From contig NC_014729.1 in the NCBI RefSeq assembly GCF_000172995.2, forward strand, positions 870,001 to 902,000: a stretch of DNA of 32,000 nt, written 5' to 3'. Each line of letters starts with the position of its first letter. Positions within the stretch are counted from its first letter, which is position 1. Source of the stretch: Halogeometricum borinquense DSM 11551. Its GTDB lineage: Archaea > Halobacteriota > Halobacteria > Halobacteriales > Haloferacaceae. The translations under genes were made by a program, and so were the position numbers. The notes below the pieces were generated by a model, which had not been told where the DNA came from, did not search any database, and saw only the letters and a list, made by a program, of their open reading frames with translations. Below, one piece after another: positions 1 to 24,938 of the stretch.

Positions 1-216
1 TATGGATGGCCTGAACGGCATCTTTTGCTTGATATCTCAACCGTCGTCGGCAAAACCTTCTCGGGCGTCTGCGCCGCGTGAATCGCAGGTGCAGTCGTTG
101 CAGTGCGGATTATAGTACACTGGACGCGACACGGGAATTCATTGGCTGTGTGAGCCGATTTGCTGGCTCAGCAAATCGGGGGACCGCTCTTAGGCGTTGA
201 TTGCTTACTCTGGAAT

Positions 217-609
217 ATGTTCGAACGCTCATCGCTCGGAAGCCAACTCAAACAGGATCTACTGAATAATCTCTCGGTCAGTATCACCGCCGCCGTTCTC
301 GCGGTTCTCGCACTCGCTGCGCTCACAGCAACTGACCCAGTCGGTGGCGCGCTCTTTCTCGCCGTGAACATTGCCGTCTTCATCCCGTATGCCTACGAAG
401 CCTATTGGCCGGTTGAATACGACTCACTCCCCGCGGCCGTGTGGACCGTCTCTGCTGCACTCATCACCGCGGGACTCTACATCGGTTTCCACGTACTCTT
501 CGAGCAATTCGTCTCACCGGAGTTCGTGGAGGTAGCCGCGTTCATCGGAACCGTTGGTGTCCAGTACGGGATTACTGCGCTCTACGCCAGCGTCCGGAAT
601 ACGACATAA
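217..609 (+). CDS. Small integral membrane protein (hypothetical), 3-4 predicted TM helices
   Basis: The ORF track gives 160..609 from a TTG. The first ATG in frame is at 217 (MFERSS...). Hydrophobic stretches are AAVLAVLALAALTA, ALFLAVNIAVFIPYA, AAVWTVSAALITAGLYIGFHVLF and AAFIGTVGVQYGITALYA. I recognise no family. Confidence 0.5.
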   Translation: MFERSSLGSQLKQDLLNNLSVSITAAVLAVLALAALTATDPVGGALFLAVNIAVFIPYAYEAYWPVEYDSLPAAVWTVSAALITAGLYIGFHVLFEQFVSPEFVEVAAFIGTVGVQYGITALYASVRNTT

Positions 610-873
610 CGATCACGCGTGACAGATGGCAGGCACGCTCAGCGAGACCGCGGCGACCAGCAAGTGAGTTGACGCTCGGAGATGTATGCAGGGAGATATC
701 GCTGGAGCAGGAGACAATCCGTTCATCAGTCGGACCGACCGACGAATATTCAGCGGGGCCGACGAGTGACAGAGAATCAGCGGACTGAGCAGATACTCTC
801 CCTTCTTGATGCTGTACTGTTCCGGGATACGAACCCGAATATAAAACTAAGTAGATAATTCACGGAATCAGAA

Positions 874-881
874 CAGTTATC
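874..881 (+). promoter_or_regulatory. TATA-like element (AGTTATCT) about 26-29 nt upstream of the ATG at 906
   Basis: It lies in the AT-rich stretch 838-900, in an otherwise GC-rich window. The spacing fits a leaderless or short-leader haloarchaeal promoter. The match to the consensus is weak. Confidence 0.3.
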
Positions 882-905
882 TACAACGATAATTTGAGGA
901 GAGTA

Positions 906-2387
906 ATGCGTATTCGCATCGCTCTTGTCGCTTTCCTACTCTTGCTCGCGGGGTGTTCAGGAACTGACCCGTTCGCGGGCGAGCCATCAAGTGAGATCGC
1001 GAAAACGACGGTCCCATCCACCGAAAAAACGAGAGCACCATCACCGACGGACGCCGCGACCCCGACCAGCGAACCAGCGACCGACCGCGTCAATCCGTGG
1101 GGTCACGAGAATGTGAGCGTCGCCGTCAGCGCTGACCTCGGAACATACGGCTACGGCACGTTTCACGAAGAGATCAGGACAGCACTCGAATACTGGAATA
1201 CCCGAGAAAACACGTCATATCCCGTTCAGTACGAACTGACGAACACGACGTACGACGCCGACATCGTCGTCAACGTTGAACCGCGAGTGAACACCTGCAA
1301 CGGACGAAGAGCCGCGTATTCGTTCGATTACTGCTCGGATGTTCTCTCGGCGGAGGACAGCATCGACTCACAAATCGATGTCTCGATGACCGGTCGGTAC
1401 GACGAGAACGAAACGAGACAGGTCGCAAAGCGGATGTTTGCCGGTCTGTCCGGCACGAAAGACGCCGAAGCGTCCGTCGAACCAGACCCGAACGGGACGC
1501 CGTGGCCGTGGCAGTCAACCGTGACAGTCGGAATCAACGCCAGCGCCGGCGGTAACCGAGACTACAAACCGTTCGTCGCAGAGACTATCGCCTACTGGGA
1601 GAAGAATCAGGACGAGTACGGCGAGTACACAACTGATTTCGAACTTCGTCCGAACGAGCCCTCCCCCGACGTCGAGGTGCGTATCGTCGAATCGATTCCG
1701 AACTGCGGAAAGAACGACAATTCGACCTCCGACGCGCTCGGTTGTGCCTCGGTACTGGACGACGGTGCCCACGCGAGCGATACCGAAGTTGTCAGAATCA
1801 TGTACGACCAGTCCGATGAAAGCATCGTCCAGACGATGAAACACGAGTTCGGCCACCTCTACGGCCTCGAACACGGGGAAGGACCAATGCCACTCATGGA
1901 CGAAACGTATCGCAGTGAAACGCTCCCGCGGCCGAACGCCACCGAACGCCCCCTGCCATGGCGGTCGAACACTCTCTCAGTGTACGTGGATTACTCGAAC
2001 ATCACCGACTCCGACAGCGAACAAGTCGAACGAGAAATCCGTGACGCGACCGACTACTATGAAGCAGGCGCGGAGGGCTACGTGCCGGGGAATCTAACGT
2101 TCGAGTACGTCTCTGACCCCGCAGAGGCCGACATCACGATTCGATTCTACAATACGTTCGCGTCGGGGACCGGAGAGTCTCGCCTTTCGGCGTCGGGAGA
2201 GGACACGGACGGTGACGGAGCACTGGAGTTCTACACGACGGGAACGATTTACATTACGGATATCTATCACGACCGGGTAGGCTGGCACGTCGGAGCTAAC
2301 CTGGGCAGTCTCATGGGGGCGAAGTCGCACTCAGACCTCCCGCCGCCGTTCGACGGGTCGGATGACAACAGAGACGACTGGAACTGA
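906..2387 (+). CDS. Secreted lipoprotein, metzincin-type zinc metalloprotease (matrixin/M10-like) with three related modules
   Basis: Signal peptide plus lipobox: MRIRIALVAFLLLLAGC|SG. A Thr/Pro/Ser/Glu-rich linker follows. The extended zinc motif HEFGHLYGLEH (HExxHxxGxxH, nt 1842-1874) is followed by PLM (Met-turn-like). There are many N-x-S/T sequons. The start is moved from the track's 894 to the ATG at 906. Confidence 0.75.
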   Translation: MRIRIALVAFLLLLAGCSGTDPFAGEPSSEIAKTTVPSTEKTRAPSPTDAATPTSEPATDRVNPWGHENVSVAVSADLGTYGYGTFHEEIRTALEYWNTRENTSYPVQYELTNTTYDADIVVNVEPRVNTCNGRRAAYSFDYCSDVLSAEDSIDSQIDVSMTGRYDENETRQVAKRMFAGLSGTKDAEASVEPDPNGTPWPWQSTVTVGINASAGGNRDYKPFVAETIAYWEKNQDEYGEYTTDFELRPNEPSPDVEVRIVESIPNCGKNDNSTSDALGCASVLDDGAHASDTEVVRIMYDQSDESIVQTMKHEFGHLYGLEHGEGPMPLMDETYRSETLPRPNATERPLPWRSNTLSVYVDYSNITDSDSEQVEREIRDATDYYEAGAEGYVPGNLTFEYVSDPAEADITIRFYNTFASGTGESRLSASGEDTDGDGALEFYTTGTIYITDIYHDRVGWHVGANLGSLMGAKSHSDLPPPFDGSDDNRDDWN

Positions 2388-2520
2388 GTAACTGTCCGCG
2401 GTCGTTGAGGGTCAATCACGAAAGGACGTCACCACGCCGCTCGGCCTACTCTCGATGACGTTAGTTGTTCATACCGCCGGTCCCGAAAGCGAGCGCAAAA
2501 GGCGGGAGAAACTCGCGCAG

Positions 2521-4272
2521 TTACCGCTTTGCGCCCGGATTCGTCACCGCACCGTTCGCGGCGGAACCAAAGTCGTTGGCGTACTTCGCCAGCACACCTG
2601 AGGAGTACGGTGGGTCACGCGGTTCCCAGTCGTCCCGCCGCGCGTCGAGTTCGTCGTCCGGGAGGTCAACCGACAGTTCGCGGTTCGGGATGTCTACCGT
2701 GACCTCGTCGCCGTCTTCGAGGAGAGCGATAGGGCCGCCGACTGCCGCTTCGGGGGCGACGTGACCGACCATCGGCCCGCGCGTCGCGCCGGAGAACCGA
2801 CCGTCCGTCAGGAGTGCCACGTCGTCTTCGTGACCCTGCCCGACGACGGCGGCGGTGACGCCGAGCATCTCGCGCATTCCGGGACCGCCTTTCGGTCCCT
2901 CGTTGCGGATACAGATGACATCGCCCGACTCGATGTGGCCCTCTTGGACGTAGCGCATCGCCTCCTCTTCGCCCTCGAAGACGCGTGCGGGACCGGTGTG
3001 GTGGAATTTGTCGTCGCCGGTGACCTTGAGGACGGCACCGTCGGGTGCGAGGTTGCCGGTAAGAATCTTGATGGCTCCTTCCTCTTGGTAGGGGTCGTCT
3101 ACAGGGTAGATAAACTCGTCAGACACCTCGCTGTCGTCGGGTAATTCGAGGTGTTCGAGTTCCTCCGCAATCGTGCGACCGGTGACGGTCATCGCGTCAC
3201 CGTGGAACAGTCCGGCATCGAGGAGACGGCGAATGACGACCGGGAGGCCGCCCTCCTCGTGCAGGTCGTTCATGACCTTCGTCCCGCCGGGTTGGAGATT
3301 CGCAATCTTCGGCGTCCGACGCGAAATTTCGTCGAACTCCTCGATAGAGAGATCGACATCCGCTTCAGCCGCAAGTGCGAGCAGATGGAGGACGGCGTTC
3401 GTCGAACCGCCGACGGCGACTTGGATAGCAATCGCGTTCTCGAACGACTTCTTCGTCAGGATGTCCGATGGACGCAGATCGTTCTCGACGGCTTGGAGGA
3501 CCGCTTCGCCGGCGCGTCGGGCAACGTCGTACCGCTCTTTGGATTCGGCGGGAGCCGACGCGGATCCGAGAGGGGCCATGCCGAGCGCTTCCGAGATAGA
3601 GGCCATCGTATTGGCGGTGAACATCCCGCCGCAGGACCCGGCACCGGGGCAGGCGTTCCGTTCCATTTCGTCGAGTTCGTCGGCGCTCATCTCACCCTCG
3701 GCGTAGGTGCCGACACCCTCGAAGACGTTCTGGACAGTGATGTCACGGCCCTCGTGTTCGCCGGGCATGATAGACCCGCCGTAGAGGAAGACGGAGGGGA
3801 GGTCGGTGCGGATCGAGGCCATCATCATCCCGGGGAGGTTCTTGTCGCACCCGGCAACGGTGACGAGCGCATCCAGTCGTTCGCCGAACGCGACCAATTC
3901 TACGGAGTCAGCGATGACCTCACGGGAGATGAGCGATGCCTTCATCCCCTCTGTCCCCATGGAGATGGCGTCCGAGATAGTGATCGTGCCGAACTCGATA
4001 GGCATCCCGCCCGATTGGTCAATTCCTTCGATAGCGGCGTCGGCAACGTCGTCGAGGTGGACGTTACAGGGCGTGATGTCCGCGGCAGGGTTGGCGACAC
4101 CGACCATCGGTGACCCGAGATCTTCGTCGTCGAATCCCATCGCTCGGAACATCGCGCGGTGTGGGGCGCGGTCTGCGCCTTCCGTCACCTCCGAACTACG
4201 GAGGTTCGCGTCTTTCCCGCTGGAGAAGGGGTCCTCGTCTCCCTCCGTCTCGCGGCGTTTCTGACTACTCAT
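2521..4272 (-). CDS. ilvD: Dihydroxy-acid dehydratase
   Basis: 583 aa. The N-terminus is ...[28 protein letters not shown]..., and the ILVD/EDD-family blocks [23 protein letters not shown] and [15 protein letters not shown] are present. Confidence 0.95.
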
Positions 4273-4390
4273 ACCGGACTCTATCCGTCTGTGCCCTTAA
4301 AGTGCCGCGACCGAACAGAAGTTGCGGGTTCGTGGTTCGGCCGTCGGAAGTGAGTGCTACAGCCGTCAGAAGACGGACGCTCCGGCCGCC

Positions 4391-5080
4391 TCACTCTCGC
4401 CCGGCTAATCCGGCGATATGTGGCAGTTCGGGGACGAGTATCTCCTCGGCACCGAGTCGCGCCGCGTTTTCACTGCCGGGAAGACAGAAGACGGGCGTCG
4501 AATCGACGATACCGGCCATCGAACGGGTGGCGATGACGCGCGCTCCGATCTCCTCGTAGGAGAGCCGTCGGAACAGTTCGCCGAATCCGGGGAGCGTCTT
4601 CGTGGCGATGTCCGTGACGGCTTCGACGGTTACATCGTCCGGAGTGACACCAGTCCCGCCGGACGTGACGATGGCGTCCACGTCGTCACGGTCTACGAGA
4701 CGGTTTACCGTAGACTGGACGCCATCGAAATCATCTGCGACGAGTTCGCGGACAGTCACCTCGTGACCGTCGCCCTCGAACGCATCGACAAGAGCGTCGC
4801 CCGCGGTGTCCTCGTCGATTGACCGCGAAGAAGAGACGGTGACGACGGCGACACCTAGCGTTTCTACGTCGTGAGCGTGATGGTGGTCGTGGCTATCGTT
4901 TCCGTCGTGTCCGTGACCATGGTCGTGGTCACCGTGATTATCGTGACTATCGTGGTTGTCGTGTCCGTCCGTGTCGTCCGACTCGCCGTGTCCGCCTGTC
5001 TCGTCTGAGTCGCCGTGTCCGTCCGTGTCGTCCGACTCGCCGTGTCCGTGTTCGTTCACGGCCGCACGGTTCGGACTCAC
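4391..5080 (-). CDS. moaB: Molybdenum cofactor biosynthesis protein B (MoaB/MogA family) with a ~70-aa His/Asp-rich N-terminal extension
   Basis: The core is typical MoaB/MogA: VAVVTVSSSR...IVTSGGTGVTPDDVT...LPGFGELFR...PVFCLPGSENA. There is no in-frame ATG between the annotated start and the core, so the His-rich head appears to be translated. Confidence 0.85.
   Translation of the reverse strand: MSPNRAAVNEHGHGESDDTDGHGDSDETGGHGESDDTDGHDNHDSHDNHGDHDHGHGHDGNDSHDHHHAHDVETLGVAVVTVSSSRSIDEDTAGDALVDAFEGDGHEVTVRELVADDFDGVQSTVNRLVDRDDVDAIVTSGGTGVTPDDVTVEAVTDIATKTLPGFGELFRRLSYEEIGARVIATRSMAGIVDSTPVFCLPGSENAARLGAEEILVPELPHIAGLAGRE
4961..5041 (-). repeat. 3 x 27-nt in-frame tandem repeat encoding (G-E/D-S-D-D/E-T-D/G-G-H)3
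   Basis: Units are 4961-4987, 4988-5014 and 5015-5041. Units 1 and 3 are identical (gtgtccgtccgtgtcgtccgactcgcc) and unit 2 is diverged. The reverse complement translates to GESDDTDGH / GDSDETGGH / GESDDTDGH inside the moaB N-terminus. Confidence 0.9.
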
Positions 5081-5104
5081 GGGACAAAGTTCTCGCGCCC
5101 TTGG

Positions 5105-5893
5105 TCACTCGTCTAGTTCGATCCCGTCCATCGTGATCTCACTTGCGTCCGCAGAAAGTTCTTCAAACCGCCGTTCGGCCCACGAGTACGCAGTGTCTGT
5201 GTCGTTAACGATAACGCCGCGGATGCCGGTGTCGGTGTATACGACGACGCCGACTTCCGTCTCGGTTATCCACAGTCCGAACGAGAACGGAACATTACCC
5301 CGTGAAATCGTTATCCGGTCGTCTGTGAGTTGGGAGAGAAAGATATCTCGCGTACTGGGTGCGGCAATGAGTTGGTCGAGAACATCACTGTCGAGCACCA
5401 TCTCAACGTCGGCATCGCTCGCTTTCGCAGCATCGTAGAACGGCTTGAGATGGCCGGAGAGGACCGCAGGTGCGACGCCGCGGAGGTGACATGCTCCTTC
5501 GATACTCTCGAAGAGTCGTTGGATGACGCCATCGGGCATCTCCGGCATCGTCGTGTACACGTCTGCACCGTCGAGAAACGCCGAATCGAGCGGCGTATCC
5601 GGTGGGAGACAGCCGAGAACACCCCTTGCACTGCTCACTTGTTGCATCCGTTCGTGGAACGCTTCGACGGCTTCGAGAGCGCACTCTCCGGCGAGCGTCG
5701 CTTCGTACCGGCCGTCTCGCTGTGTCACCAACCCGACATCAAGGAGTTCCCGGATCGCTCGATCAACCGTCGAACGCGAACTCTCGACAACCTCTGTCAA
5801 CTCGCGCTTGGAGTGTGCTTCGAGAACGACTGCACGAAGGACCTGCTCGCGGGAGAGAGCGATATCTTCGATTCGTCGCCCGTCATCCGCCAT
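5105..5893 (-). CDS. Winged-helix (ArsR/MarR-like HTH) transcriptional regulator with a C-terminal sensor-like domain
   Basis: The N-terminal wHTH is LSREQVLRAVVLEAHSKRELTEVVESSRSTVDRAIRELLDVGLVTQRDGRYEAT, followed by a ~170-aa C-terminal domain of the kind common in haloarchaeal regulators. The ATG at 5893 is preferred; the track starts at a GTG at 5911. It ends 24 nt upstream of moaB on the same strand. Confidence 0.7.
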   Translation of the reverse strand: MADDGRRIEDIALSREQVLRAVVLEAHSKRELTEVVESSRSTVDRAIRELLDVGLVTQRDGRYEATLAGECALEAVEAFHERMQQVSSARGVLGCLPPDTPLDSAFLDGADVYTTMPEMPDGVIQRLFESIEGACHLRGVAPAVLSGHLKPFYDAAKASDADVEMVLDSDVLDQLIAAPSTRDIFLSQLTDDRITISRGNVPFSFGLWITETEVGVVVYTDTGIRGVIVNDTDTAYSWAERRFEELSADASEITMDGIELDE

Positions 5894-6084
5894 TGCCTCC
5901 CCATCACACACGACAGGTATGAATATTATGACTCACTGACGTGAGAACGCAATTCTGTCGTTCGAGTATCCCGCCCAGCCATCACAGACGGCACGCCGTT
6001 CGGAAGAGTCGTCGCGTGTCGAACTAACGGAAAACTGTGTATCGGAGACACGGGCTTTTGACATCTCCGTGCGAGTGGGTGACT

Positions 6085-7125
6085 ATGAAGGCTGTGCAAT
6101 TTACCGAACACGGCGGGCGCGACGTCATCGAGTACGGCGACTACCCAGACCCGGAGGCCGAACGCGGTGAAGTCGTGGTGGATGTAAAGGCGGCCGCATT
6201 GAATCATCTCGACATCTGGACGCGACGCGGGATGCCGATTCTCGACTTAGAGATGCCGCACATCCCCGGCAGCGACATGGCAGGCGTCGTCCACGAAGTC
6301 GGTGAGGGTGTCACTCGCTTCGAACCCGGCGACCGAGTCGCACTCATCGCAGGTGTCGCCGGCGACGATACCGAGTTCTCGCGGAAAGGTGATCCGACGC
6401 TATCGCACGATTACCACCTCATCGGTGAACACGTCCGCGGCGTCCACGCCGAGTACGCGTGCGTCCCGGCATCCAATCTCGTCCCGGTTCCGGACGGCGT
6501 CGAGTGGGAAGTCGCAGGGTCGGCATCACTCGTCTTCCAGACGGCGTGGCGAATGCTCGTAGACAGAGGCGAACTCCGACCGGGCGAATCCGTTCTCGTC
6601 CTCGGCGCGTCGGGCGGTGTCGGTCACGCAGCAGTGCAGATTGCCGACCACGCGGGCGCGGAAGTGTACGCGACGGCATCGACAGACGAGAAACTGGCGT
6701 ACGCCGAGGAGTGCGGCGCAGACCACACTATCAACTACGCCGAGAACGACTTCGCCGCGGAGATCCGAGAGATGACCGACAAACGCGGCGTGGACATGGT
6801 CGTAGACCACATCGGCGAGGAGACGTACCAAGACTCACTGAAGAGTCTTCGAAAGGGTGGTCGCATCGTCACCTGCGGGGCGACGACAGGACCGAATCCG
6901 GACGCCGGATTAAACCGGATCTTCTGGAAGCAACTGTCAGTTATCGGTTCGACGATGGCGACGCCCGGACAGGCCGACGAGGCGTTAAAGCTGGTCTGGG
7001 ACGGCACCTTCGAACCCAGGATCCGTGACGTCCTCCCGATGAGCGAGGCGGCCCGCGCTCACGAGATGTTAGAAAACCGTGAGGGCTTTGGCAAGGTAGT
7101 GTTAATTCCCGATAGTGAACTCTGA
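6085..7125 (+). CDS. Zinc-type alcohol dehydrogenase / NADPH:quinone oxidoreductase family (MDR superfamily)
   Basis: MKAVQFTEHGG...VVVDVKAAALNHLD...HIPGSDMAGVV, plus the Rossmann motif LVLGASGGVGHAAVQIA. The ATG at 6085 is chosen over the track's 6037. Confidence 0.85.
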   Translation: MKAVQFTEHGGRDVIEYGDYPDPEAERGEVVVDVKAAALNHLDIWTRRGMPILDLEMPHIPGSDMAGVVHEVGEGVTRFEPGDRVALIAGVAGDDTEFSRKGDPTLSHDYHLIGEHVRGVHAEYACVPASNLVPVPDGVEWEVAGSASLVFQTAWRMLVDRGELRPGESVLVLGASGGVGHAAVQIADHAGAEVYATASTDEKLAYAEECGADHTINYAENDFAAEIREMTDKRGVDMVVDHIGEETYQDSLKSLRKGGRIVTCGATTGPNPDAGLNRIFWKQLSVIGSTMATPGQADEALKLVWDGTFEPRIRDVLPMSEAARAHEMLENREGFGKVVLIPDSEL

Positions 7126-7508: not shown

Positions 7509-7859
7509 ATGTTCGAACAGTTCTCAAGCGGATACTATCTGGGTCGCCTGTACGTCGAGCCGTACGATGGCGACGTGCCCGCGATACAGCGAGAAGACCA
7601 CACGCATGTCAACGAACGACTCTACGCCGAGGAGGAACTCGTTCGACTCGACATTCCACTCGTAATGAAACTCGACCAGGAGCATTTCCCGGTCGTCGGC
7701 AACGAGAACATCCCGTCAGGGACACTCGCTCTCCCGGAGGACTTCGCCGGGTCCGACCTCCCGGACGACAAAAGTGTCCTCCTCGCTAAACCTGACCGGG
7801 CAACCGAACTCCTGCGATACGCGGGGTACGACCTCGACAACGGGGCCGCACTCGCCTAA
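7509..7859 (+). CDS. Conserved-looking acidic cytosolic protein, function unknown
   Basis: 116 aa starting at an ATG (MFEQFSSGYYLGRLYVEPYDG...). The composition is acidic and haloarchaeal-like and there are no TM segments. I recognise the N-terminal motif as a haloarchaeal DUF-type family but cannot name it with certainty. Confidence 0.6.
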   Translation: MFEQFSSGYYLGRLYVEPYDGDVPAIQREDHTHVNERLYAEEELVRLDIPLVMKLDQEHFPVVGNENIPSGTLALPEDFAGSDLPDDKSVLLAKPDRATELLRYAGYDLDNGAALA

Positions 7860-7961: not shown

Positions 7962-8858
7962 ATGCTGGACGAGTTGCTGGGACGGGCGAAGCTCAAAGCG
8001 CGCATCGAGGAGTTAGAGGAGGAGAAACACCACCTCGAACGTCGCGCCGAAGCCGAGGAAGAGCGGCGCGCAGCGGCCGTCAAGGATCGGCAGGAAGCCG
8101 AAGCCGAGGTCAATCGACTCGAAGACCGCATTACGGAGTTAGAGGACCGAGTCAGCAGACTCGGCGGTGACGACGAAGCGGAACTCGACTACCGCGGTAC
8201 CGAGGACCTGTTCGGTGAGCGCCGCGACGAGATTCTCTCGCGTCTCGAATCGTTCTCGACCGGTCCTGAAGGCGCGTTCTCGGCCGTCGTCGGAGACGAT
8301 ATTCCAGACGAAGTGGCTGACGCGTTCGGCGACCGGAGCGCACTCGTCCGTCGGGCCGCCCCATGTCTCTGTCTCACCGACGACGCCGGACTCGTCTCTG
8401 TCGCACTCGATGCCCCCACACTTCCCGAGGAGTTCGCTACGTGGAACGACGAGTTTCGACTGGAGCGGTCGTGGTTCACGCCCGAAGAACCGGTTCGTGT
8501 TGCTCTCGTCCGGTCGGATCTGTTCGCAGTTGGTGTCTACGACGGTGAGTCGGTGACTCTCGTGGACGAAGTTGAGTCCGACGTGATGAACGCCCACTCG
8601 AAAGGCGGATTCTCGCAGGCCCGCTTCGAACGGCGACGTGACGAACAGGTGGAGAATCACCTCGACAGGGCGAAAGATGCGCTGGCCGCGAACGAGAACG
8701 CCGCCGACGGCCTCGTCGTCCTCGGGGAACGAACCGTTCTCGGAGACTTCCGAGCGATGGCAGACCACGTGGCGACAGTGGACGCCTCGGGCGACCCCGA
8801 AGACGCCCTTCGAGCGGCCGTTCGGGAGTTTTGGACAACTCGGCTGTACTGTCTTTGA
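7962..8858 (+). CDS. eRF1-like (Vms1/ANKZF1 VLRF1-type) putative peptidyl-tRNA hydrolase with an N-terminal coiled coil
   Basis: Residues 1-70 form a charged heptad-like coiled coil (KARIEELEEEKHHLERRAEAEEERR...). The C-terminal region ...VALVRSDLFAVGVYDG...NAHSKGGFSQARFERRRDEQVENHL...GLVVLGERTVLGDF matches the eRF1/Pelota central-domain pattern (eRF1: H-G-R-G-G-Q-S-x-x-R-F-x-R-L-R). GGFSQ (nt 8604-8618) replaces GGQ. Confidence 0.7.
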   Translation: MLDELLGRAKLKARIEELEEEKHHLERRAEAEEERRAAAVKDRQEAEAEVNRLEDRITELEDRVSRLGGDDEAELDYRGTEDLFGERRDEILSRLESFSTGPEGAFSAVVGDDIPDEVADAFGDRSALVRRAAPCLCLTDDAGLVSVALDAPTLPEEFATWNDEFRLERSWFTPEEPVRVALVRSDLFAVGVYDGESVTLVDEVESDVMNAHSKGGFSQARFERRRDEQVENHLDRAKDALAANENAADGLVVLGERTVLGDFRAMADHVATVDASGDPEDALRAAVREFWTTRLYCL

Positions 8859-8923
8859 ACTGATAGGCAGGAGGTGCCGAAACACTTGAAATTAAGCCAC
8901 CTGTGGTCATCGTTTCAGAGACG

Positions 8924-9973
8924 ATGACTACCGCACGGACCGACGGAGGCCCCGAACGGGTGGTCGTTCTGGCACACGAGAAGTTCCCCGACCGAGCGAA
9001 GACGGCGACGGGAGTTCTGAAGTACGCCGATTATGATATCGTCGCCGTACTTGACCGGGACAACCCCGGAACCTCGGCCGCGGACCACCGCGACGATCTG
9101 CCAGACGTACCCATCGTCGCCTCCATGGACGACGCCCCCGAAGCGGACGCACTCCTCATCGGTATCGCCCCTATCGGCGGCGGGTTCGATGAGACGTGGC
9201 GCGACGACGTTCGAACCGCTATCGAACGAGAATGTGACGTTATCTCGGGTCTCCATTACTTCCTGAACGACGACGAGGAGTTCGCCGCACTCGCTTCCGA
9301 ACAGGGTGTCGAACTGAACGATGTGCGAAAACCGCACGAGGACCTCTCGGTTGCGCAGGGGAAAGCGGCGGAGGTGGACGCCGATATCGTCCTCACTGTC
9401 GGGACCGACTGTTCGGTCGGAAAGATGACTGTCTCCTTGGAACTGGTGGAGGCGGCCCGTGAACGCGGTATCGACGCCGGATTCATCCCGACGGGGCAGA
9501 CCGGGATCATGATCTCCGGGTGGGGCAACCCCATCGACCGCGTTATCTCGGATTTCACCGCCGGGGCCGTCGAGGAGATGATTCTGGAGGTCGGCGACGA
9601 CTACGATGTGTTGTTCGTGGAGGGGCAAGGGAGCATCACGCATCCCGCCTACTCGGCTGTCACCTGCGGCATCCTTCACGGCGCGATGCCCGATGCACTG
9701 GTCCTGTGTCACGTCGCCGGGCGCGAACACATTCACGGCTACGACTCATTCGACATCTCGCCCATCTCGAAATACGTTGATCTCTACGAATCACTTTCCG
9801 AACCCGTCCACGAGTCCTCGGTGGTTGCCGGTGCGCTGAACACATCCCACATCGACGACGACTCGGAGGCTCGCGCGGCCGTCGAGTCGTACGCCGATGA
9901 ACTTGGTGCGCCTGCCACGGACATCGTTCGCTTCGACGCCGACGAGATTCTCGACGCGGTGGTGGAGGACTGA
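8924..9973 (+). CDS. DUF1611-family protein (DgcN-like; P-loop-like GTDCSVGKMT)
   Basis: The layout is a Rossmann-like N-domain plus ...LTVGTDCSVGKMTVSLEL...FVEGQGSITHPAYS..., characteristic of DUF1611. The ATG at 8924 is preferred over the GTG at 8903. The stop lies 2 nt before the next gene. Confidence 0.85.
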   Translation: MTTARTDGGPERVVVLAHEKFPDRAKTATGVLKYADYDIVAVLDRDNPGTSAADHRDDLPDVPIVASMDDAPEADALLIGIAPIGGGFDETWRDDVRTAIERECDVISGLHYFLNDDEEFAALASEQGVELNDVRKPHEDLSVAQGKAAEVDADIVLTVGTDCSVGKMTVSLELVEAARERGIDAGFIPTGQTGIMISGWGNPIDRVISDFTAGAVEEMILEVGDDYDVLFVEGQGSITHPAYSAVTCGILHGAMPDALVLCHVAGREHIHGYDSFDISPISKYVDLYESLSEPVHESSVVAGALNTSHIDDDSEARAAVESYADELGAPATDIVRFDADEILDAVVED

Positions 9974-9975
9974 CG

Positions 9976-11019
9976 GTGCTTCTGACAACGGAGTTCGAGC
10001 GGGTATCGTATCCGCTGGCGGACGCCTTCACAATCTCTCGGGGAACACAGACGGCGGCCGAGAACGTAATCGTCCGCGTCACCGACGACGGGGGCATGAC
10101 CGGTGTCGGCGCTGCGGCCCCCTCCGCACACTACGGCGAGACGGCGGATACCGTCGAAGCCGTCCTCCCCGAGTTGTTGACTGTGGTCGAATCTGTGGGT
10201 GACCCGCACGCTCTCACCGAAATCGAGCGGAAAATGCGCGAACGCGTCGGCCGCAACCCGGCCGCCCGAACCGCGGTCAGCATCGCTCTCCACGACCTCG
10301 CCTCGAAACGACTCGGTCTGCCGCTCTACCGACAGTGGGGACTCGACGCCGACGAGACGCCGCCGACCTCCTTTACCATCGGTCTCGACGAGACCGAGAC
10401 GATGCGCGAAAAGACCGAGGACGCCGTGGAGGCGGGCTATCCCGTGCTGAAGATCAAACTCGGAACCGACCGCGACGAGGAGATCGTCGAGACAGTGCGC
10501 GACGCCGCACCCGACGCGACGATTCGCGTGGACGCCAACGAGGCGTGGACGCCGCGCGAGGCCGTCCGAAAATCCGAGATGCTCGCTGACTACGGTGTAG
10601 AGTTCATCGAGCAACCGGTCCCGGCATCCGACCCAGAGGGGGTACAGTTCGTCTACGAGCGCTCTGCACTCCCCGTCGCCGCCGACGAGTCCTGTGTCAC
10701 CCTTGCGGACGTGCCCCGCGTTGCCGACCGGACCGACATCGTGAATCTGAAACTGATGAAGTGCGGCGGCCTCACGGAGGCAAAACGGATGATCCACACC
10801 GCTCGGGCGCACGGATTGGAGGTTATGCTCGGCTGTATGATCGAATCGAACGCCGCTATCGCGGCCGCGTGCCACCTCGCGCCCCTGTTGGACTACGCCG
10901 ACTTGGACGGCGCATTGCTCCTCGGCGAAGACGACTACGACGGCGTTCCGATCAAAGAAGGCGAGATTCGCCTTCACGACCTGAACCGGAGTGGGACAGG
11001 CGCACGGCGGACCGAGTGA
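9976..11019 (+). CDS. Enolase-superfamily dipeptide epimerase / N-acyl amino acid racemase (MR/MLE subgroup)
   Basis: KxK motif (VLKIKLG) and metal ligands in VDANEAW, IEQP and ADES. The second catalytic Lys lies in NLKLMKCGG. The GTG start is 2 nt after the DUF1611 stop. Confidence 0.85.
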   Translation: MLLTTEFERVSYPLADAFTISRGTQTAAENVIVRVTDDGGMTGVGAAAPSAHYGETADTVEAVLPELLTVVESVGDPHALTEIERKMRERVGRNPAARTAVSIALHDLASKRLGLPLYRQWGLDADETPPTSFTIGLDETETMREKTEDAVEAGYPVLKIKLGTDRDEEIVETVRDAAPDATIRVDANEAWTPREAVRKSEMLADYGVEFIEQPVPASDPEGVQFVYERSALPVAADESCVTLADVPRVADRTDIVNLKLMKCGGLTEAKRMIHTARAHGLEVMLGCMIESNAAIAAACHLAPLLDYADLDGALLLGEDDYDGVPIKEGEIRLHDLNRSGTGARRTE

Positions 11020-12306: not shown

Positions 12307-13152
12307 TTAGGAGTCGTCTTCGTTTTTCAGTTCTTCGAGTTCGGCTTCGACATCTTCTTCGGCAACGTCCACCTCGTCCAGTTCCTCGTCCAAGTCAGCA
12401 CTGGCCGTCTCGCTGCCGTTCTCGGATTCGGCTTCGGATTCGGCTTCGGCCGTGGACTTGCCCATCTCGGTTTTGAGTGTCTCCAGTTCGGTATCGACTT
12501 CGGAGTTCGCCCGGCCGGTCTCCAGTTCGCGGTCGATGGCGTCCTTGTCGGACATCATCTCGTCGAACGCACCGGTATCGACGAGTTCGTCCATTGCGGC
12601 CGAACGGGCTTCCATCTCGTCGGTCTGGTCTTCGGCGCGTTCGAGGGCGCGGGAAACGTCGCCCATCTCGTCGCCCACACCGGACACCGCTTCGGAGACA
12701 CGCGAGGAGGCTTCGGCGGCCTCGTAACGGGCCTTCATCGTCTCCTTTTTGGTGCGGAACTCCTCGATGCGGTTCTGGAGTTCGTTTTTCTTATCGACGA
12801 GGTTGTCCTGCGTTTCCTGCAGGTTCGCAATCTGCGACTCTAAGTCCTCGATCTGATTCATCTTGGCCTGCTTTTTCTCCAAGGCGCGCTTGGCCAAGTC
12901 GTCCCGATCCTGTCTGACAGCCTGACGGGCTTGCTCGTTGTGCTTTTCGACGTTCTCTTCGAGGCGACGCTTCTGAATCTCCAGACGCTTTTTCTGCGTC
13001 GTCAGGTCGGCAATACCCTGCTTGACCTGCTGGAGTTCGTCACGCATCTTCTCGTAGGAGTAATCGAGCGTCTCCGTCGGGTCCTCCGCGCGATTGAGGA
13101 GGGAGTTGATTTTCGAACGGACGACGTAAGACGCGCGTGAGAGGATTCCCAT
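12307..13152 (-). CDS. pspA: PspA/IM30 (Vipp1, ESCRT-III superfamily) protein with an acidic C-terminal tail
   Basis: The N-terminus MGILSRASYVVRSKINSLLNRAEDPTETLDYSYEKMRDELQQVKQGIADL... is the canonical PspA/IM30 start. Long coiled coils follow, then an Asp/Glu-rich tail. Confidence 0.88.
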   Translation of the reverse strand: MGILSRASYVVRSKINSLLNRAEDPTETLDYSYEKMRDELQQVKQGIADLTTQKKRLEIQKRRLEENVEKHNEQARQAVRQDRDDLAKRALEKKQAKMNQIEDLESQIANLQETQDNLVDKKNELQNRIEEFRTKKETMKARYEAAEASSRVSEAVSGVGDEMGDVSRALERAEDQTDEMEARSAAMDELVDTGAFDEMMSDKDAIDRELETGRANSEVDTELETLKTEMGKSTAEAESEAESENGSETASADLDEELDEVDVAEEDVEAELEELKNEDDS

Positions 13153-22422: not shown

Positions 22423-22599
22423 ACCGACTGTGAGCCAGCACAGGTCAAAACCGTTTCGGAGCGTCCGATTCATTGCCAGACACCCCCACGTTCCTCACTT
22501 CTGAGAGGTTCGAAGCACTCGATTCGGAAGCCGTTTGGCGGTTCGTTCGATGTGTGTCCGAACTGACTCCCGAACGCGAATCGTTTGCTGTTCTCTGTG

Positions 22600-24000
22600 C
22601 TACTCTTCGGCCGCTGCCTCGCCTTCAGTCGTTTCCGCTTCGGCTTCTTCGGTCGCCTCCGCTTCAACCGTCTCCGCTTCGGCCGTCTCCGCTTCGGCCG
22701 TCTCCGCTTCGGCCGTCTCCGCTTCAGTCTCACGACGGCGAATCACAGGTTCGGCCTCGTCCGAGAGCGGCCGTGGGGAGGGTGTGTCAGCCTCATCGTC
22801 AGCCGCGTCTTCGGCTTCGTCACTCGATTGCTCGTCGTCGTCGAGGTCGATAGTGACGGCATCGTCGTCGAGTGCGACCTCGGCTTCCGCGTCCTCGCCG
22901 TCCGCCGCTTCGTCCGACTCCCCTCCCGTCTCGCGGGCGACGATTTCGTCGTCCTTCAGATCAATCCGTTCGACGCCCGGAATCTCCAGAATCAGGTCGG
23001 GTCCGAACGCTGCCGCGGGCGTCTGGTAGCCGGTCGGTGCCTCGCCGTTGAGCGTCTTCTTCGCGCAGAGAAGCGCGGTCTGCACAGTTATCGCGTACGT
23101 GTTGGGGGTCCGGAGACGAGAGACGACGCGGTCTGTGGGCGACCGGGCCTCTCCCCAGATACGCGCTTCGGACGATCCGCGTTCCCGTTCGTCGGGGCCT
23201 TCGACGTAGCGCTCGATGGCGCGTTGGAGCATCGACTGGGCGGGTTTCGTGTCGAGGAGTCCACCGAGAAGCGACGTTCCCGTCAGAGCGCTGCGCGCCT
23301 TCGACGGAAGCGAGAGGTACACTTCGATGTTCGGGATTTCGGTGGTGACGTACGCCGTCGAAACGTCGCCCCACGGGATAGTGACTGCGCGGTGGAGGCC
23401 TTCACCGAAGTCGATAGCGCGGGTCTTGTGTCCGGTTGGAACCCACCGCAGGTCGCCGTCTCGGCGCACGGCACCGCCGCCGGACATATCCCCGAGTGCG
23501 GTTTTGAGCGTCCCGGGCGAGATGGAGCCGTCGGATTCGAGTGCCAGCGTGAGATGCGTCGCCTCGGGGAGACGGGATTTGAGATGCGCGGCGAGACAGT
23601 CAGTCGGGACCACGTCGAAGCCGACACCGGGAAGCAAGGTGATCCCTGCCTCGTCAGCTTCGTCGCTTCGGCGTTTGATGCGCTCGAAGACGGGGATTTC
23701 GCCTGTAATGTCGAGGTAGTGCGTCTCCGTCTCGATGCAGGCATCGACCATGTGGTCGGCCGTCTCGTCGAACGGTCCCGCGCAGTTGAGAACGAGGGAC
23801 ACGTCGTCCAGCATCGTCGCGGCCTGCGACACGTCGAACGTGCGGTAGGGGAGGTCAAGTTCGTTGGCGACATCGCGCGTCCGCTTCTCGTCGCGGCCCG
23901 CGAGGACCACATCGAGGTCGCGGTCGGCCGCTTCTTCGGCGATGAGGCGACCGGTGTATCCGTACGCGCCGTAGACGAGGAACCGAGAGTCGTCGGACAT
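22600..24000 (-). CDS. Saccharopine dehydrogenase-like NAD(P)-binding oxidoreductase with a ~115-aa acidic low-complexity C-terminal tail
   Basis: The start is MSDDSRFLVYGAYGYTGRLIAEEAA (GxxGxxG Rossmann), then ...NCAGPF...HYLDITGE...LPGVGFDVVPTD. The tail DDEIVARETGGESDEAADGEDAEAE...TEAETAEAETAEAETAEAETVEAEATEEAEAETTEGEAAAEE is in frame. The 624-aa track ORF is trimmed to the ATG at 24000. Confidence 0.8.
   Translation of the reverse strand: MSDDSRFLVYGAYGYTGRLIAEEAADRDLDVVLAGRDEKRTRDVANELDLPYRTFDVSQAATMLDDVSLVLNCAGPFDETADHMVDACIETETHYLDITGEIPVFERIKRRSDEADEAGITLLPGVGFDVVPTDCLAAHLKSRLPEATHLTLALESDGSISPGTLKTALGDMSGGGAVRRDGDLRWVPTGHKTRAIDFGEGLHRAVTIPWGDVSTAYVTTEIPNIEVYLSLPSKARSALTGTSLLGGLLDTKPAQSMLQRAIERYVEGPDERERGSSEARIWGEARSPTDRVVSRLRTPNTYAITVQTALLCAKKTLNGEAPTGYQTPAAAFGPDLILEIPGVERIDLKDDEIVARETGGESDEAADGEDAEAEVALDDDAVTIDLDDDEQSSDEAEDAADDEADTPSPRPLSDEAEPVIRRRETEAETAEAETAEAETAEAETVEAEATEEAEAETTEGEAAAEE
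22666..22725 (-). repeat. 4 x 15-nt in-frame tandem repeat encoding (AETAE)n
   Basis: The sequence is aaccgtctccgcttc, then ggccgtctccgcttc three times with no mismatch (22681-22725). Degenerate copies flank it in 22621-22665. Confidence 0.9.
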
Positions 24001-24137
24001 GGCTCGGAGTTGGGTCGTCGGAAGGTTATTCGTACCGCTTCGTCGGGCGGGGCCGCCGAACGGGACCCCACCGTCCGAAACCCGAGTTGTCTGCCGGGAC
24101 CGACGCTGTTGAGGCCGCGGCGTGTGAACGCCGCCGC

Positions 24138-24938
24138 ATGGAAATACCGAATCTCGGCTTCGGAACGTATCAGATGGACGACCGCAACGAATGCGTTCGG
24201 GCCATCGAACTGGCGATGGAGACGGGATACGAACACGTCGATACCGCGCAGATGTACGACAACGAGGCGTTCGTCGCGGCGGGCCTCGACGAATCGGGTA
24301 TCGACCGCGATGAGGTGTTCGTAGCCACGAAACTCGACACGGACAACCTCGCGTATGACGACGTAAAGCGGACGGCGAAAGAGAGCGCGGAGAAACTGGG
24401 AACCGACACCATCGACCTGCTGTACGTCCACTGGCCGATAAACACGTACGACCCAGTAGAGACGCTTTCCGCACTGGACGAACTCGTCGAGGAGGGCGTC
24501 ATCGAACGAGTCGGTCTGAGCAACTTCCGCCCAGACCAGTTAGAAGACGCCATCGAGCATCTCGATGAGCCGCTCTACGCCCATCAGGTCGAGATGCACC
24601 CGATGCTCCCGCAGGAAGAACTGCACGAACTCGCCGTCGAACACGACCACCAACTCGTCGCCTACTGTCCCATCGCACGCGGACAGGTAGCTGACGTTCC
24701 CGAGATTCAGGCGGTCGCAGAGAAACACGATGCGACGCCCGCACAGGTGTCGTTGGCGTGGCTGATGGGCAAAGAGAACGTCACAGCTATCCCGAAAGCC
24801 GCCTCGCCTGACCACATCCGCGAGAACTTCGCCGCCCGCGACCTCGAACTGGACGACGCGGACCGCGAGAAGATAGACGGAATCGAGACGCGAGAGCGCA
24901 TCGTTGACTTCGATGAAGCGCCGTGGAACAACGCCTGA
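24138..24938 (+). CDS. Aldo/keto reductase (2,5-diketo-D-gluconate reductase-like)
   Basis: MEIPNLGFGTYQM...GYEHVDTAQMYDNE...FVATKL...LLYVHWP...GLSNF...QVEMHP are AKR signature blocks that include the catalytic D/Y/K/H positions. ATG at 24138. Confidence 0.85.
   Translation: MEIPNLGFGTYQMDDRNECVRAIELAMETGYEHVDTAQMYDNEAFVAAGLDESGIDRDEVFVATKLDTDNLAYDDVKRTAKESAEKLGTDTIDLLYVHWPINTYDPVETLSALDELVEEGVIERVGLSNFRPDQLEDAIEHLDEPLYAHQVEMHPMLPQEELHELAVEHDHQLVAYCPIARGQVADVPEIQAVAEKHDATPAQVSLAWLMGKENVTAIPKAASPDHIRENFAARDLELDDADREKIDGIETRERIVDFDEAPWNNA

Follow-up and report, generated by a model that had tools for sequence, protein, structure and literature searches.

An archaeal Vms1-like release factor homolog with an aromatic GGxSQ loop in Halogeometricum borinquense

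Introduction

The 32-kb window analyzed here (32,000 nucleotides of Halogeometricum borinquense DSM 11551, contig NC_014729.1, positions 870,001 to 902,000) carries an open reading frame (ORF) at 7962..8858 on the plus strand whose product resembles the eukaryotic and archaeal peptide chain release factors eRF1 and aRF1, with GGFSQ where these have the catalytic GGQ. The locus raises the question of what such a protein does on the ribosome. The data place it in the aVLRF-1 (archaeal Vms1-like RF-1) family, which was described computationally by Burroughs and Aravind in 2019 (PMC6514570), and suggest that it is a stand-alone aRF1 paralog which probably needs neither codon nor GTPase to release nascent chains from stalled large subunits. 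The 2019 description already contains the family with its architecture and motif, along with the proposal of a single-component release function (PMC6514570). The additions of the present analysis are the deletion of the segment that bears the NIKS loop, the aromatic nature of the variable residue x in GGxSQ, the conserved residue Q44 in the N-terminal helix, and a genomic linkage to the DUF5802 family in Halobacteria.

A first-pass annotation of the window, made from the sequence, had proposed this gene as a candidate Vms1-type nascent-chain release factor. As the family and its signature were published in 2019 and NCBI already gives many haloarchaeal orthologs the name "Vms1/Ankzf1 family peptidyl-tRNA hydrolase", that reading of the gene is not new, and the annotation re-derived both family and signature. 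Its coordinates for the ORF and for GGFSQ are exact.

Family membership

The strongest Pfam match of the protein is to PF18859 (acVLRF1, "Actinobacteria/chloroflexi VLRF1 release factor"), which covers residues 177-295 at 105.9 bits (E=2.2e-30) against a gathering score of 27.1 bits and is also matched by 32 of 32 members in an alignment of diverse aVLRF-1 proteins that are 19-54% identical to the query. Two weaker matches overlap it, one to baeRF_family10 (36.4 bits, threshold 27.1) and one to eRF1_2 (residues 184-240, 23.1 bits). Neither the query nor any of the 32 diverse members matches another VLRF1-type Pfam model. The query has the GGxSQ loop of the bacterial acVLRF-1 proteins of Actinobacteria and Chloroflexi, and theirs is the best-scoring model, but it lies far below the cutoff of NCBIfam NF041024, which describes the full-length bacterial protein (43.9 bits against 125, over residues 176-265 only).

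The published traits of aVLRF-1 are an archaeal host, a long N-terminal coiled coil preceding the N-domain, a GGxSQ loop, and the lack of a C-terminal Pelota-type domain (eRF1 domain 3) (PMC6514570). Archaeal host, N-terminal coiled coil, N-domain, GGxSQ and missing C-domain are all found in the query, which is like the family in every defining trait and shows no difference at the family level. An exhaustive search of 1.84 billion proteins gave 164 matches, from which the best 150 cluster representatives were taken, and at least 554 loci that encode a relative were counted among the 600 pattern matches looked at in a species-genome collection. The best 80 loci from that collection are all from Halobacteria, and distant members are found in ANME-2, Methanosarcinales and Methanosaeta.

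The gene itself is an ATG-initiated ORF of 298 amino acids plus stop, and its product is 98% identical to a database protein of Halogeometricum borinquense. All orthologs begin with MLDELLGRA, so the start codon is correctly assigned. In some sources the orthologs are labeled "peptide chain release factor 1". Antisense ORFs overlap the gene, for example at 8139..8885 on the minus strand; such ORFs are commonplace in high-GC DNA.

The catalytic domain and its GGFSQ loop

Residues 177-298 (8490..8855, plus strand) form a catalytic domain of the aRF1 M type, with an RNase H fold, as assigned by Pfam (acVLRF1, eRF1_2) and Foldseek. Within it lies the catalytic loop with the helix that follows, HSKGGFSQARFERRR (residues 212-226; 8595..8639, plus strand), in which GGFSQ occupies residues 215-219 (nt 8604-8618, ggc gga ttc tcg cag). 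The by-eye alignment of this block to the eRF1 catalytic region in the first-pass annotation is borne out far beyond chance by the PF18859 match, and HSKGGFSQARFERRR aligns without gaps to the corresponding loops of aRF1 (HKMGGQSQRRYERI, structure 3agk) and eRF1 (HGRGGQSALRFARLR). Because the alignment is gapless, the aromatic residue occupies the exact position of the canonical catalytic glutamine, and the conserved glutamine of the family lies two residues downstream. The resulting arrangement, G216-F-S218-Q219, fits the G-x-u-Q motif of Vms1/ANKZF1 and bVLRF-1; the first-pass annotation had likened it to a GxxQ arrangement in Vms1/ANKZF1.

The loop is among the best conserved parts of the protein. 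In the 32 diverse members H212, G215, G216, S218, Q219, F222, H233 and G255 are invariant and K214, R221 and R226 nearly so, while in an alignment of 24 haloarchaeal orthologs the block HSKGGFSQ.RFER is invariant with the exception of one change of Ser213 to Lys. The downstream residues R221 and R226 have been tied to rRNA binding by Burroughs and Aravind (PMC6514570). Loss of the glutamine among orthologs, which the first-pass annotation had named as evidence against its reading, is not what was found: Gln219 is kept in 24/24 haloarchaeal orthologs, 32/32 diverse members and 121 of the 126 cluster representatives (out of the best-scoring 150) that align at the GG positions, on which all representative counts given here rest. 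Ser218 is kept in 124 of these 126. Taken together, the pattern of conservation resembles that of an active site.

An aromatic residue fills the x of GGxSQ in 115 of the 126 representatives (F in 71, W in 26 and Y in 18). Ser or Gln takes its place in 10 representatives, most of which are shorter and lack the N-terminal helix, and the representatives with a non-aromatic x still align to the archaeal profile (hhalign E=7.6e-34). This obligatory aromatic residue at the old glutamine position is the most suggestive unexplained feature of the family. The GGSSQ and GGQSQ relatives that lack the N-terminal helix match aRF1 (4af1, E=4e-37) even more strongly than the members of the archaeal family do, and their aRF1 match takes in the N-domain region.

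A reduced N-domain and a conserved N-terminal helix

The first-pass annotation had held that the N-terminal domain of eRF1, which reads the codon, is absent and replaced by a coiled coil. The first half of that claim is wrong, since the segment in question retrieves aRF1 N-domains when searched by itself: with residues ~75-175 alone the top PDB matches are those of 4af1 (E=5.4e-6) and 3agk (E=3.6e-5), followed by nuclear magnetic resonance structures of the eRF1 N-domain. With the profile of the 32 diverse members, aRF1 is matched at E=5.9e-20 (3agk) and E=1.4e-17 (4af1) and eRF1 at E=3.4e-14, in a single alignment that spans aRF1 from residue ~7 to residue ~211-240 and thereby both the N- and M-domains; the N-domain of 3agk is covered at aRF1 residues 7-139. 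What is missing is the NIKS-bearing segment alone. Compared with 3agk, 4af1 and 3e20 the family has a gap of 25-28 amino acids exactly over the NIKS loop region, opposite which 4af1 has, for example, the stretch "...EASNIKSKQTRTNVQDALTSIKDRL". The distal part of the domain is kept, with W161 and the near-invariant F165 aligning with the C and F of the eRF1 YxCxxxF motif. The protein is thus assigned a reduced aRF1-type N-domain without the NIKS-bearing segment at residues ~74-176 (8181..8489, plus strand).

A single-sequence search of the PDB was headed by designed Kelch-repeat proteins (SAKe6), with E-values down to 9e-15. These matches were rejected, as the score sums five or six weak matches of one 40-residue stretch (within residues 156-206) to identical repeats, each with an i-Evalue of ~3. 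The artefact is a caution for automated annotation.

At the other end of the protein, Pfam gave no eRF1_3 or other C-domain signal for the query or any of the 32 diverse members, and the query ends at residue 298, immediately behind the M-type domain, which leaves no space for a C-domain. In aRF1 and Pelota the C-domain binds the delivery GTPase and ABCE1.

The coiled coil of about 70 residues that the first-pass annotation described is supported by an AlphaFold2 model built on the 24 haloarchaeal orthologs, with a mean predicted local distance difference test (pLDDT) score of 87.5. Residues 2-67 (7965..8162, plus strand) are predicted as one continuous helix with pLDDT >90, and coiled-coil families of the tropomyosin and myosin-tail type match the N-terminus weakly. 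The helix is followed by a low-confidence linker at 68-72, an alpha/beta domain at ~79-162 and a second alpha/beta domain at 178-297. The conservation within the helix centers on a patch of Q44 and N51-R52-L53. No member of the diverse alignment departs from Q44, which is also kept in 93 of the 96 representatives in which the helix is aligned; these 96 all belong to the 115 with an aromatic x, and in 92 the alignment extends across helix and N-domain alike. Among the haloarchaeal orthologs there is little variation from R36 to L60. The helix is no featureless coiled coil.

Proposed function and comparison with known systems

The combination of an active-site-like loop with a reduced N-domain and a missing C-domain is the basis of the function that we consider probable for aVLRF-1, namely that a stand-alone aRF1 paralog frees nascent chains on stalled large subunits without recourse to codon or GTPase. 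Independence of codon and GTPase would follow from the predicted inability of the protein either to read stop codons or to be delivered by aEF1-alpha. In the proposed mechanism, aVLRF-1 would dock on the A-site side where peptidyl-tRNA is still present on a stalled large subunit or on a ribosome whose A site is empty, and would insert its GGxSQ loop into the peptidyl-transferase center, whereupon the nascent chain would be detached by hydrolysis of the ester bond or, as in ANKZF1/Vms1, by removal of the tRNA 3′-CCA. The N-terminal helix probably supplies the additional contact with the ribosome or a partner for which Vms1 has its zinc-finger and ankyrin domains.

The proposed release on the large subunit parallels the action of Vms1 on the 60S subunit with its GSQ loop, where the Vms1 glutamine (GxxQ/GSQ context) is projected at the peptidyl-transferase center from the 60S A site (PMC7026593). 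Peptidyl-tRNA on the large subunit has been shown to be the target of Vms1 (PMC7026593) and is proposed to be that of aVLRF-1. The two share an eRF1-like catalytic domain with a glutamine displaced behind a small residue (GxuQ/GSQ), and both lack codon reading and GTPase coupling. They differ in that the query keeps the di-glycine and an aRF1-type N-domain, and in that it has a coiled coil instead of the N-terminal extension that Vms1 shares with bVLRF-1; no Pfam domains corresponding to the accessory modules of Vms1 (Rei1-type zinc finger, ankyrin repeats, VIM/Cdc48 link) were found in the query. With aRF1 and eRF1 the query has homologous N- and M-domains and catalytic loops that align without gaps, whereas it differs from them by Phe217 in place of the GGQ glutamine, by the deletion of NIKS, by the absence of a C-domain and by the extra N-terminal helix. 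The top ranks of a Foldseek search of the PDB are occupied by eRF1 and aRF1 (E~3e-8 to 6e-7 over 245-260 aligned columns), with the M-domain chains 2hst (120 columns, rmsd, or root-mean-square deviation, 4.9) and 8hku_ARF1 (132 columns, rmsd 3.7) also matched.

Several observations weigh against the proposed function. Direct similarity to Vms1 is marginal, with the Foldseek matches 6r84_R at rank 37 (E=7e-3) and 5whg at rank 50 (E=3.6e-2), and in PDB sequence searches at E<=10 a Vms1 chain occurs neither among the best 60 of 136 matches of the archaeal profile nor among all 27 matches of the profile of members with a non-aromatic x, both of which match aRF1 and eRF1. Balon and its kin, which have the aeRF-1 fold and are non-catalytic hibernation factors, stand among the fold matches directly after aRF1 and eRF1 (8v9k, E=6e-6; 8rd8, E=5e-5), along with Pelota (E=1e-5). 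The canonical glutamine site is aromatic and the conserved glutamine comes two residues later, in a predicted geometry. The first-pass annotation had suggested looking for co-occurring factors of ribosome quality control (RQC), and none were found: a Pfam scan of 30 ORFs across the window detects no NEMF/Rqc2, Ltn1, Pelota, ABCE1 or Cdc48, the flanks of distant aVLRF-1 members contain no RQC partner genes, and neighborhoods outside Halobacteria are inconsistent, with no shared neighbor. Finally, no experimental characterization of any archaeal aVLRF-1 member was found in the literature, in agreement with what the first-pass annotation had stated.

By both sequence and fold, aVLRF-1 is much closer to aRF1 and eRF1 than to Vms1. 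In the published phylogeny aVLRF-1 represents the ancestral condition of the clade from which Vms1/ANKZF1 arose, with eVLRF-1 (Vms1) deriving from bVLRF-1 and "only distantly related" to aVLRF-1 (PMC6514570). In light of this phylogeny and of the weak similarity to Vms1, the term "Vms1-type" is a clade label that reflects phylogeny and the shared displaced-glutamine motif. The first-pass designation is largely upheld by the acVLRF1 match, the motif and the published aVLRF-1 architecture; the closeness to Vms1 that it implies is not supported.

Alternative explanations

The alternative that survives best concerns the chemistry of the reaction, with aVLRF-1 as a tRNA 3′-end nuclease on stalled 50S subunits whose GG[F/W/Y]SQ loop would cut the CCA off the P-site tRNA, with the aromatic residue stacked on one of the CCA nucleotides. 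For ANKZF1/Vms1, cleavage of the tRNA 3′-CCA has been reported, with a 2′,3′-cyclic phosphate left behind (PMC7026593), the RNase H fold of the catalytic domain (PMC6514570) would suit a nuclease, and an aromatic residue at the canonical glutamine site is not obviously needed by a hydrolase that coordinates water. The di-glycine and Ser-Gln are nevertheless kept as in hydrolytic release factors, Burroughs and Aravind argue that the clade is hydrolytic (PMC6514570), and nothing in the sequence tells ester hydrolysis and CCA cleavage apart. We regard the nuclease as unlikely.

Occupation of the A site without catalysis, by a hibernation or protection factor that is parked on idle ribosomes under stress as is bacterial Balon, appears very unlikely. 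The fold matches to Balon are significant, the baeRF_family10 match is above its threshold, A-site binding would be common to both, and a passive binder could well do without codon reading and the C-domain. Against this stands the loop H-x-K-GG-x-SQ-x-RF, which is invariant down to ~20% identity in the manner of an active site, its glutamine and surroundings included, whereas most baeRF-1 families, which are deemed inactive, have lost the glutamine and conserve the loop poorly (PMC6514570).

That aVLRF-1 might be a second, stop-codon-dependent aRF1 specialized for particular stop codons or contexts, as its clear aRF1 homology over the N- and M-domains and the label of some orthologs could suggest, is scarcely credible for a protein with the NIKS-bearing segment deleted, GGQ altered, and no C-domain for aEF1-alpha delivery and ABCE1 recycling.

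Genomic neighborhood

In Halobacteria the neighborhood of aVLRF-1 offers a candidate partner. Conservation was compared within 6 kb around the gene in the best 80 haloarchaeal loci, each from its own genome. The most conserved neighbor among those compared is the DUF5802 gene (PF19118, E=2.7e-42) at 7509..7859 on the plus strand, a homolog of which is present in 66 of the 80 loci. In 61 of these it is the immediate upstream gene on the aVLRF-1 strand, and the gap has a median of ~92 nt. The pairing in these 66 loci spans Haloferacaceae, Haloarculaceae, Halobacteriaceae and Natrialbaceae, so that the aVLRF-1 genes described as "standalone" (PMC6514570) are in Halobacteria linked to DUF5802. The DUF5802 family appears to be restricted to Halobacteria in the databases searched, as every organism-named match among the best 120 (of 607 clusters) is haloarchaeal, and no DUF5802 gene was found beside the distant aVLRF-1 genes of Methanosaeta, ANME-2 and other euryarchaeal metagenome-assembled genomes. 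Its profile has no relative in the PDB, no literature on it was found, and its AlphaFold2 model has a pLDDT of 54, too low for a fold assignment. DUF5802 is a possible functional partner of aVLRF-1. An extension of this idea, in which the halobacterial aVLRF-1 and DUF5802 would form a two-gene ribosome-rescue module, and/or the aromatic x would confer a chemistry or substrate grip (e.g., CCA stacking) unlike that of eRF1 and Vms1, seems unlikely at present.

Outside Halobacteria the neighbors of distant members include an LRV/HEAT-repeat protein, Fic, a class-I aminoacyl-tRNA synthetase, aEF-2 and the exosome superoperon. In one euryarchaeal metagenome-assembled genome aVLRF-1 overlaps by 8 nt the end of a cluster of Rpp14, proteasome-alpha, SBDS, Rrp4, Rrp42, L37ae and RpoP, and in another lineage it adjoins aEF-2. 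This context of translation genes in some lineages would count in favor of a role of aVLRF-1 at the ribosome. In the former cluster (locus 1-5948) a 142-residue gene without a Pfam match lies between RpoP and aVLRF-1. In Methanosaeta (locus 5920-6825, plus strand) the same-strand gene that overlaps aVLRF-1 and follows it encodes an LRV/HEAT-repeat protein (PF01816, E=2.5e-46), which was seen beside aVLRF-1 in Methanosaeta and not in the other lineages looked at.

Downstream of aVLRF-1 in the window lie a DUF1611 (P-loop) gene at 8903..9973 and an MR_MLE epimerase gene (enolase superfamily, dipeptide-epimerase-like) at 9976..11019, both on the plus strand, with homologs in 48 and 42 of the 80 loci, respectively. 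As the two genes stand nearly end to end (gap of 2 nt) and are kept as a downstream pair in 42-48 of the 80 loci, they are probably an operon of their own, and the pair may resemble the bacterial DgcN/DgcA pathway of D-glutamate. An alcohol dehydrogenase gene at 6037..7125 has homologs in 23 of the 80 loci, with 20 close same-strand orthologs.

The Pfam matches of the 30 ORFs scanned across the window include no translation factor and belong to metabolic or other genes unrelated to translation (PEP carboxylase, CTP synthase, GMP synthase, ILVD, aldehyde dehydrogenase and PspA, among others). The PspA/IM30-family gene (12307-13152, minus strand) and a transcription regulator gene of the FilR1/HVO_A0261 type (5105-5911, minus strand) seem to be commonplace haloarchaeal genes and have no obvious connection to aVLRF-1. 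Two further ORFs, at 22585-24324 (plus strand, 579 amino acids) and 22600-24474 (minus strand, 624 amino acids), overlap almost fully; Pfam support was obtained for the minus-strand ORF only, as a saccharopine dehydrogenase NADP-binding domain, and the plus-strand ORF is probably a high-GC artefact.

Biological significance

The proposed release of nascent chains by aVLRF-1 is directly testable, since haloarchaea such as Haloferax volcanii have a clear ortholog and are genetically tractable; this has been so since the description of the family in 2019, and the window gives no new opening in that respect. For the disposal of nascent chains on split 50S subunits in Archaea, aVLRF-1 suggests itself as the candidate releasing enzyme, and its linkage to DUF5802 in Halobacteria is a lead toward a partner.

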